A stretch of 64,000 bases of DNA from Escherichia coli. GTDB taxonomy: Bacteria; Pseudomonadota; Gammaproteobacteria; Enterobacterales; Enterobacteriaceae. This document shows positions 38,764 through 40,640 of the stretch, in pieces (position 1 is the first letter of the stretch; each line of letters opens with the position of its first letter). The position numbers and the translations under genes were made by a program. The notes under the pieces are model-generated. The model did no database searches. It was not told where the DNA came from and saw only the letters and a list, made by a program, of their open reading frames with translations. Location of the stretch: assembly GCF_044324785.1 (NCBI RefSeq), contig NZ_CP172127.1; one strand, written 5' to 3'.

Positions 38764-40023
38764 TTATGCTTTTCTCGCTAACGCGTCTATATCCGAAAAA
38801 TACTCTTTAATTCCCTCTAGGATAGATTCTGCCACTTGTTGTTGGAATCTTGCCGTTTTCAGTTTGCGCTCTTCCTCAACGTTACTGATAAACGCCGTTT
38901 CGACCAGAATGGAGGGAATATCAGGTGCTTTCAGCACGGCAAACCCGGCCTGTTCAACCTGATTTTTATGCAGCTTGTTGATTTTACCGAGCTTATTCAG
39001 CACCGCTTTACCCAACTTCAGGCTGTCGGCAATGGTCAGAGACTGCACCATATCGAACATGGTGTGGTCGACATAGCGGTCACCGCTTTTGCTCACGCCG
39101 CCAATCAAGTCCGAGGCGTTCTGGGTTTGTGCCAGATATTTTGCCGCAGTACTTGTCGCGCCTTTGGTCGAAAGCGCAAACACGGAAGAACCGCTCGGCT
39201 GGCGACTGGTAAAGGCATCAGCATGGATAGAAACAAAAAGGTCAGCACGTTGTTTCTGTGCTTTTGCTACACGCACTTGCAACGGAATGAAGATGTCTTC
39301 ATTGCGCGTCATGTACACCTTCATATTACCCTCTTTTTCGATCAGAGAGCGCAGACGGCGAGCTATTTGCAATACCACGTCTTTTTCGCGTGTTTTGTAT
39401 TTCCCCACCGCACCGGGGTCTTCGCCACCGTGGCCGGGGTCAAGCATAATGACAATCGGACGATCACGCCCTGCTTTACCCGGTTGTGGACCACTTTGTG
39501 CTGGCGGCACCTGCTTTTCGAGGTCGCCTTTGTTGTAATCCTCCAGCAGCGCCAGCAGCGGGTCCTGCATATCCTGTGCATTGGCCGGATAGAGGTCCAT
39601 CACCAGACGCTCTTTAAACCCGGCGACCGGCGCAAGGGCAAACAGCTGCGGTTTTACGTTTTGCTTTAATTCAAAAACCATGCGTACGGTTTGCGGGTCA
39701 AATTGCCCGACGCGCGCCGACTTGATGAACGGGTCGTCTGCACGAATTTGTGCCGCCATCCCCTTGAGTACCGAGTTCAGGTTTACATCTTCGATATCCA
39801 CCACCACACGTTCAGGGTTACTTAACGCGAACTGCTTATATTGCAGCTGACGATTTGATTCTACCGTCACGCGGGTGTAGCTGGACGCAGGCCAGACGCG
39901 TACCGCCACGACCTGGCTGACCGCAGCCAGGCTGACCTGACTTACGCTCAATAGCCACATGGCGCCCGCACCTTGCAGTAAACGACGACGGCTGATTACA
40001 TAATTATAGTTAGATACCAGCAT
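38764..40023 (-). CDS. amiC: N-acetylmuramoyl-L-alanine amidase AmiC-like (Tat signal)
   Basis: 419 aa; [15 protein letters not shown] Tat motif and amidase_3 domain; near full-length match to AmiC as recalled. Confidence 0.8.
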
Positions 40024-40640
40024 ACCTTACCTAAGCAATACAATGTTCAATAATATAACTATGCTCTAATAAATTTTTACAGGTGTTTAAAGAAATAATC
40101 ACACGTATTCTTATCTTTGCAATCTAATCTAATTTTAAATAAAGGTCAATATCTTATTTTTTGATATAAGTTTTCTTAAATACCACGATATAAAAACATT
40201 TTATTTAAGTGATTTCTTTTAGTTTGTTTTTCAAATAAAAGGGATGTACTCATGACATTTTAAATATGTACATCATGCACAGCAATATTATAGTTTTTAT
40301 CTGATTACTGAGAAGCATCTATCAATAGAACAATGTTTTTTAGTTTGTATAGGGAAGAGTTGGGTTGAATTGAGAATAAAAACTAGAGATTACTGGGGAA
40401 GGAACTTTTCAAATCCGAAATCATGGTCTACAATGAAAAAATGATGTTCTAAGTATTCCTATCATGAATAAGAATGCACCATATTTTGAATAGTATAATT
40501 TTATATTTATATATCCTTTACTGTACGATGATGATATTTTATACCTGAATGACAAGGGTGTTATTTTATACCACATATAAATTTGCAGAAAATATAAAAT
40601 GAGAAGCACTGAATAATCGCGGCTTCTGGCTATGATTTAA
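40024..40640. other. AT-rich non-coding region (about 600 bp)
   Basis: Long A/T tracts, no ORF of 60 aa or more on either strand except one low-complexity artefact. Confidence 0.5.

Follow-up and report, generated by a model that had tools for sequence, protein, structure and literature searches.

The DNA analysed here, a stretch of 64,000 nucleotides from Escherichia coli (hereafter the window), carries a second copy of amiC that is borne on a genomic island. Judged from its sequence, this copy is a chimera, in which a core of E. coli type is enclosed by ends and flanks that are foreign and AT-rich. The history that we consider likely is that a foreign homologue, resident on the island, had its interior overwritten through gene conversion from an Escherichia amiC. 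The chimeric make-up, with homology to the native gene starting and stopping within the open reading frame (ORF), was absent from an earlier description made from the letters of the DNA (the sequence-only reading).

The island gene and its product

The gene and the leader in front of it are placed as follows.

38764–40023, minus strand: island-borne amiC, an intact ORF of 419 aa with a Tat signal, an AMIN domain, and an Amidase_3 domain
40024–40041, minus strand: ribosome-binding region (TTGCTnnGG...ATG), recognisably homologous to the leaders of native amiC genes

The translation matches AMIN (PF11741) at residues 40–144 (E = 2e-21) and, C-terminal to it, Amidase_3 (PF01520) at residues 192–406 (E = 6.9e-52) in Pfam. 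It scores 792.6 bits with the NCBIfam model of AmiC (NF038267, cutoff 700). E. coli AmiA and AmiB have the Amidase_3 catalytic domain in common with the island protein, but the scores with their models fall well below the cutoffs (278 against 400 for AmiA and 217 against 532 for AmiB). By these models the product is AmiC, and neither AmiA nor AmiB; the RefSeq annotation of carrier genomes already gives it this name. The sequence-only reading had called the gene an intact AmiC-like amidase with a Tat signal, and both descriptions stand: the twin-arginine motif ISRRRLL, read from the sequence, is unbroken, and from this motif onward the island N-terminus is that of native AmiC.

The closest known counterpart is the chromosomal AmiC of E. 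coli K-12 (PDB 4BIN), an N-acetylmuramoyl-L-alanine amidase of the septum that is exported by the Tat pathway and activated by NlpD. The two proteins have the same domain order and align with E = 8e-241. Up to residue ~390, the mature region (residues 36–390 in the alignment) is the same but for three substitutions (K to Q, S to P, and F to L), so the zinc-binding and catalytic positions and those of the autoinhibitory helix are unchanged. The S to P substitution sits in GGEDxGA, where nucleotide alignment shows that native Salmonella genes also encode P. Differences from K-12 AmiC are found in the first 8–9 and in the 29 C-terminal residues. All testable features that define the AmiC family are present in the island gene.

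From the near-identity of its mature form with that of K-12 AmiC, we infer an AmiC-like action for the protein. The island protein would work as the chromosomal AmiC does, being exported by the Tat pathway and directed to the peptidoglycan of the septum through its AMIN domain. There, as a zinc amidase activated by NlpD, it would remove stem peptides and contribute to daughter-cell separation. Peptidoglycan amidases belong to the core enzymes of cell division and are Tat substrates; their duplication on pathogenicity-type islands is seldom discussed.

A second copy in addition to the native locus

We searched 5,426 complete E. coli genomes for the island gene. A copy with at least 99% identity occurs in 57 of them, roughly 1%, and each of these carriers has two amiC places, the native one and the one on the island. 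The gene aligns over its full length and without gaps in 57/57 carriers. The remaining genomes have one amiC, at most 95.0% identical to the island gene. According to the host column, about half of the 57 carriers come from poultry and about a quarter from humans, and the immediate insertion sequence (IS) context is common to all of them. An index of public assemblies has the identical protein in 1,829 blocks; the surroundings are IS-rich in all ten contexts listed for it (10/10), most of which have the same adjoining transposase genes.

The native locus is readily recognised in strain SMS-3-5 (NC_010498.1), where an intact amiC at 3,036,388–3,037,641 is divergent from argA, with recD beyond argA. 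Downstream of it lies an inserted block of five genes, followed by three tRNA-Met genes and mltA. Strain RM7190 has this arrangement without the five-gene insertion. The sequence-only reading took such a locus, divergent from argA and with tRNA genes downstream, as the arrangement of K-12, and had seen neither neighbour beside the amidase; this arrangement is that of both strains, and beside the island gene argA, tRNA-Met and mltA are indeed all absent, with IS fragments in their place. The region upstream of the island copy is also wholly different from that of K-12 and is AT-rich. By this test of orthology, the island amiC is a paralogue or xenologue rather than the orthologous chromosomal locus. 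In SMS-3-5, the island copy is found at 3,227,446–3,228,705, about 190 kb from the native gene and on the same strand.

Two explanations had been offered for the unusual context, a second amidase borne on an island and the movement of the chromosomal locus by IS-mediated rearrangement. The first is borne out by the 57/57 carriers with two amiC. The second, in which a single chromosomal amiC was moved into the IS-rich region, could draw on the remnants of IS3, IS110, IS21 and IS66 elements around the gene, but it fails on the same counts: native amiC is retained in all carriers, and the argA–amiC locus of SMS-3-5 is intact. Moreover, no native allele is more than 95.0% identical to the island copy, and nothing in the flanks of this copy is shared with those of the native gene. 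We give this explanation virtually no credence, and for the form in which the sole amiC of the genome was relocated, the two amiC places of the 57/57 carriers and the intact locus of SMS-3-5 are a refutation. Nor do the carriers have a single amiC behind the ordinary upstream region of the species: each has two, and the AT-rich block upstream of the island copy was found only in the 57 genomes. What the genomes contain is a second amiC copy and not a relocated locus.

The native and island genes of SMS-3-5 form direct repeats of ~1.15 kb with ~96% identity, ~190 kb apart. Such repeats are a possible substrate for chromosomal rearrangement, by duplication or deletion of the interval between them. 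Another genome with two amiC places, that of E. coli C122 (NZ_CP170128.1), encodes a 479-aa AmiC-like protein (P0014) with an extra PF24837 domain, apparently an unrelated fusion or duplication.

Mosaic structure and proposed history of the gene

Within the ORF, we distinguish a core, a patch inside this core, and two ends.

40000–40023, minus strand: foreign 5′ end, codons 1–8 (MLVSNYNY), with 25% GC and 46% identity to native amiC
38854–39999, minus strand: E. coli-type core (gene nt 25–1170), with 53% GC and 96.4% identity to the native gene of RM7190
39144–39343, minus strand: more divergent patch within the core (gene nt 681–880)
38764–38853, minus strand: foreign 3′ end, the last 29 codons and the stop codon, with 39% GC and 71% identity to the native gene of RM7190 (over gene nt 1171–1257)

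Two native E. coli alleles, with 96.7% identity between them, match the core at 96.4% and 95.5%. The identity of the core is 93.6% with Escherichia sp. MOD1-EC7003, 92.0% with E. whittamii, 89.3% with E. albertii and about 83% with Salmonella. The tail behaves differently: against the native genes from 80 species of Enterobacteriaceae its identity is 55–74% (median 64%), and over the same stretch these genes are 67–100% identical to one another (median 80%). Synonymous divergence from the native gene follows the same partition. In the core, dS is 0.15 (dN/dS 0.03), against 0.156 between the two E. coli natives, and in the tail it is 1.3–1.7 (dN/dS 0.13–0.16), against 0.77 between E. coli and Salmonella.

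The maximum chi-square method places the 5′ breakpoint at gene nt ~24–26 (chi-square 102, where the best of 2,000 permutations gave 29) and the 3′ breakpoint after gene nt 1172 (chi-square 104, where the best of 2,000 permutations gave 33). Native-versus-native controls have no break at the 3′ end, which is not hypervariable among them. Homology to the native loci starts abruptly at the codons of the Tat motif and fades towards the 3′ end; in the alignment to these loci, neither flank resembles the argA side or the tRNA-Met side beyond the ribosome-binding region. Both ends of the island gene still look amiC-like. The aligned sequences share 19 of the last 29 residues with native AmiC, the dN/dS of the tail is low, and in the leader TTGCT and GG are shared by 13/13 aligned sequences, the island copy included.

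A simple account of such a gene would be that the resident amiC was duplicated into the island and that its ends and flanks then decayed through AT-biased drift. The E. coli-like core fits this account, as does the nature of the core sites that are unlike both E. coli natives, which are mostly G/C-to-A/T changes at third codon positions. Yet two sharp breakpoints and a jump in dS from 0.15 to over 1.3 are unexpected from drift, the tail is under purifying selection, and the flanks resemble neither the argA side nor the tRNA-Met side except in the ribosome-binding region. We regard duplication followed by drift as very improbable.

The history that we prefer, of a foreign homologue partly overwritten, would run as follows. 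A distant homologue of amiC arrived on the island together with foreign AT-rich DNA. Codons 1–8, the final ~29 codons and the flanks on either side would derive from this distant amiC locus, which would lie beyond the 80 sampled Enterobacteriaceae species. The interior would then have been replaced by that of an Escherichia amiC through homologous recombination (gene conversion), with crossovers in conserved stretches, namely the Tat-motif codons on the 5′ side and a conserved coding stretch on the 3′ side. Later IS insertions and deletions would have trimmed the surrounding foreign DNA.

The fine structure of the core bears on the source of the converting sequence. Across genomes, the 5′ part of the core (nt 25–680) is 97–98% identical to native alleles. 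The patch (nt 681–880) falls at 90–95% identity in 5,348 of 5,425 matching records, and at 91–92.5% among the matches listed; two non-island records lie at 95–99% and 18 records at 80–90%. It carries 16 of the 41 core differences, an excess with p = 0.001 in a post hoc Fisher test, while a single-breakpoint test of the patch is not significant (p = 0.29). The central patch is suggestive of more than one recombination event or of an unsampled donor. Among sequenced native E. coli alleles, identity does not exceed ~98% in the 5′ core and ~92.5% over the full patch. As no native allele matches the core closely enough, the donor of the conversion would be unsampled or the history would have had several steps.

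A search for the unconverted donor in metagenomes, with the tail peptide back-translated, matched two contigs, both with the same E. coli gene. A protein query with the 45 C-terminal residues returned 13 short E. coli fragments at 100% identity, which are uninformative for full-length proteins, and the full-length protein retrieved ordinary enteric AmiCs from a database clustered at 90% identity. Among contigs of species-representative genomes, we recovered 80 native loci, none with more than 95% amino-acid identity to the island protein and none with an island-type tail.

A further explanation is a transfer of the whole gene, without recombination, from an unsampled Escherichia-like lineage with fast-evolving amiC termini. 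Such a transfer would account for the lack of a native allele above ~98% in the core, and for a central patch with ~92% identity to almost every E. coli allele and a similar distance from other Escherichia species. On the other hand, the core nests with E. coli, the tail is further from each of the 80 Enterobacteriaceae species than is typical among them, the 3′ end is not hypervariable when natives are compared with natives, and the flank GC of 25–29% is unlike the Escherichia chromosome. We think that this explanation is improbable.

Recombination between diverged homologues is known to produce mosaic genes, e.g., those of penicillin-binding proteins. The island amiC is like these genes in having sharp breakpoints between unequally diverged blocks of one intact ORF. 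It differs from them in its partners, which here would be a housekeeping gene of the core genome and a xenologue borne on a mobile island; nor is it known to confer a phenotype. If conversion of a foreign homologue is indeed what happened, the structure records gene conversion between such partners and points to a route by which islands may gain alleles of core genes and carry them between lineages. The case would show that a housekeeping gene and its horizontally acquired homologue can recombine to give a core-type coding sequence under foreign control signals.

A separate recombination at the 3′ end of amiC is visible in the native gene of Escherichia sp. MOD1-EC7003. Its last ~87 nt are 94% identical to Klebsiella michiganensis and only 82% to E. 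coli, and the DNA downstream is also Klebsiella-like. This is an independent natural event.

The AT-rich flanks and the expression of the gene

The gene is bounded on both sides by AT-rich DNA.

40024–40726, no strand assigned: AT-rich upstream block without a recognisable gene, 703 bp, 27% GC
38644–38763, no strand assigned: AT-rich 3′ flank of the cassette, 120 bp, 29% GC
40121–40149, minus strand: promoter-like TTGACC-17-TAGATT, a consensus match only, ~100 nt upstream of the ATG
40287–40314, minus strand: best promoter-like site, TTCTCA-16-TATAAT (10/12), a consensus match only, ~265 nt upstream of the ATG

The sequence-only reading had noted about 600 bp of AT-rich non-coding DNA beside the gene. 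The description is accurate and the region somewhat longer: 40024–40640 has 26.6% GC, and AT-rich DNA continues to about 40726, up to a fragment of an IS3-family transposase. The lowest-GC stretch of 600 bp in the 64-kb window starts at 40001 (25.5% GC, against 51.1% overall). The longest ORF in the block has 62 aa, and its small ORFs have no match in Pfam. Searches with blastn (word size 11) found the block only in the same 57 island-bearing genomes, and there was no match in 72,556 plasmid records and 50,697 phage records.

The block had been proposed to hold promoters, H-NS binding sites or a small RNA, and our searches for these gave the proposal no support beyond base composition. For a small RNA, comparison of the block with Rfam gave no match at E ≤ 1, and folding of both strands against shuffled sequences gave z-scores of −1.3 to +1.3, hence no signal of a structured RNA. 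The H-NS nucleation motif (TCGATAAATT-like) has no match within 40024–40726 at up to two mismatches and is not enriched across the window. For promoters, there are 11 promoter-like hexamer pairs, all of them consensus-only matches, against 6.4 ± 2.3 in shuffles, a mild excess. As all copies are at least 99% identical, neither covariation nor conservation of the block can be used. The AT content of the block is well above average (27% GC, against 51% in the window), which is the composition of xenogeneic DNA silenced by H-NS. On this composition, the block is probably bound by H-NS and damped in E. coli. In the 3′ flank (38644–38763), we found no terminator-like site on the sense strand, and the fold z-scores are modest (−1.7 and −2.2).

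Expression of the island gene would depend on this foreign AT-rich upstream region instead of the argA–amiC intergenic region. Since the latter has been replaced by ~700 bp of DNA with 27% GC, functional novelty, if any, would lie in regulation. One could envisage a functional second septal amidase under foreign, condition-specific control of the type silenced by H-NS, which gives island lineages an advantage in envelope or cell-separation functions, and we consider this unlikely. If the gene is expressed at all, the dosage or timing of the amidase could change in its carriers, ~1% of the complete E. coli genomes; otherwise, it would be a neat case of mosaic gene evolution without wider consequence. 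Either way, this is not a new kind of system.

The gene could also be silent cargo, an intact and unexpressed hitchhiker on a decaying island that contributes nothing to the cell, which is compatible with a chimeric origin. Such a state would fit the neighbouring genes, which are mostly pseudogenes, and upstream DNA so extremely AT-rich that it is of a type usually silenced in E. coli. It would also fit the near-identity of the copies, whose persistence may reflect recent spread alone. Against it, the ORF has remained full-length and ungapped in every carrier amid heavy pseudogenisation nearby, and a ribosome-binding site and promoter-like sites are present. With all copies at least 99% identical, conservation is uninformative on selection for the island copy. 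We hold silent cargo to be a real possibility, somewhat short of an even chance.

The island and its insertion sequences

Two IS3-family fragments bound the cassette.

37912–38643, plus strand: fragment of an IS3-family transposase pseudogene whose right end abuts the cassette (RefSeq annotation, NZ_CP074701.1)
40727–40870, minus strand: internal IS3-family transposase fragment (rve_3), cut short at the border of the AT-rich block (annotation and Pfam)

The IS fragments that the sequence-only reading saw upstream of the block begin, at 40727, with a truncated transposase. The two sides differ: the IS3-family element at the 3′ flank has an intact end there, and the one at the 5′ block is truncated. 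In plasmids, the IS3-family homology stops at window position ~38640–38650. The RefSeq annotation of NZ_CP074701.1 shows remnants of IS3, IS110, IS21 and IS66 elements on both sides of the amiC unit, and most genes adjoining the island amiC are pseudogenes. Many remnants of IS21, IS66, IS110 and IS256 elements accompany the ltrA pseudogene noted below, and the island is strongly degraded around the intact amiC.

In SMS-3-5, a genomic island beside the tRNA-Phe gene pheV (GI-pheV) was mapped to 3,197,159–3,289,098 (91.9 kb) in a 2024 study, where its P4-type integrase was the most divergent among those examined (PMC11537424). The coordinates of the island amiC of this strain fall within the published interval. 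The same study makes no mention of amiC or of any amidase (PMC11537424). We found no description of a second amiC on GI-pheV, or of its chimeric make-up, in the literature covered by an incomplete searchable library. The window shares with the SMS-3-5 island iha and an IS-rich segment; it differs in having an additional Mu-like prophage and in not reaching pheV. The amiC segment of SMS-3-5 is part of GI-pheV, and for the strain of the window, in which pheV lies outside the stretch analysed, the shared sequence suggests that the same holds.

The Mu-like transposable prophage spans 1–20793 (DUF935, ExeA-family and transposase genes) and has 100% identical copies in many E. coli. It is inserted in a PhoX-family gene of the island, of which a 151-aa N-terminal ORF is left (20790–21245, minus strand); the gene is whole (1,980 bp) in NZ_CP074701.1. 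The siderophore receptor/adhesin gene iha is at 28052–30139 (minus strand), and just upstream of it, at ~30150–30700, the window is at its second most AT-rich, with about 35% GC. A pseudogene of a group II intron reverse transcriptase/maturase (ltrA) lies at 50139–51380 (plus strand). Further on are a four-gene metal ABC transporter resembling sitABCD (58121–61591; a ZnuA-type binding protein, an ATPase and two ABC-3 permeases) and a ROK-family gene (62523–63635). The island also bears a sodC-like gene for a Cu/Zn superoxide dismutase (54235–54759, minus strand), another periplasmic enzyme of housekeeping type that is duplicated on the island.
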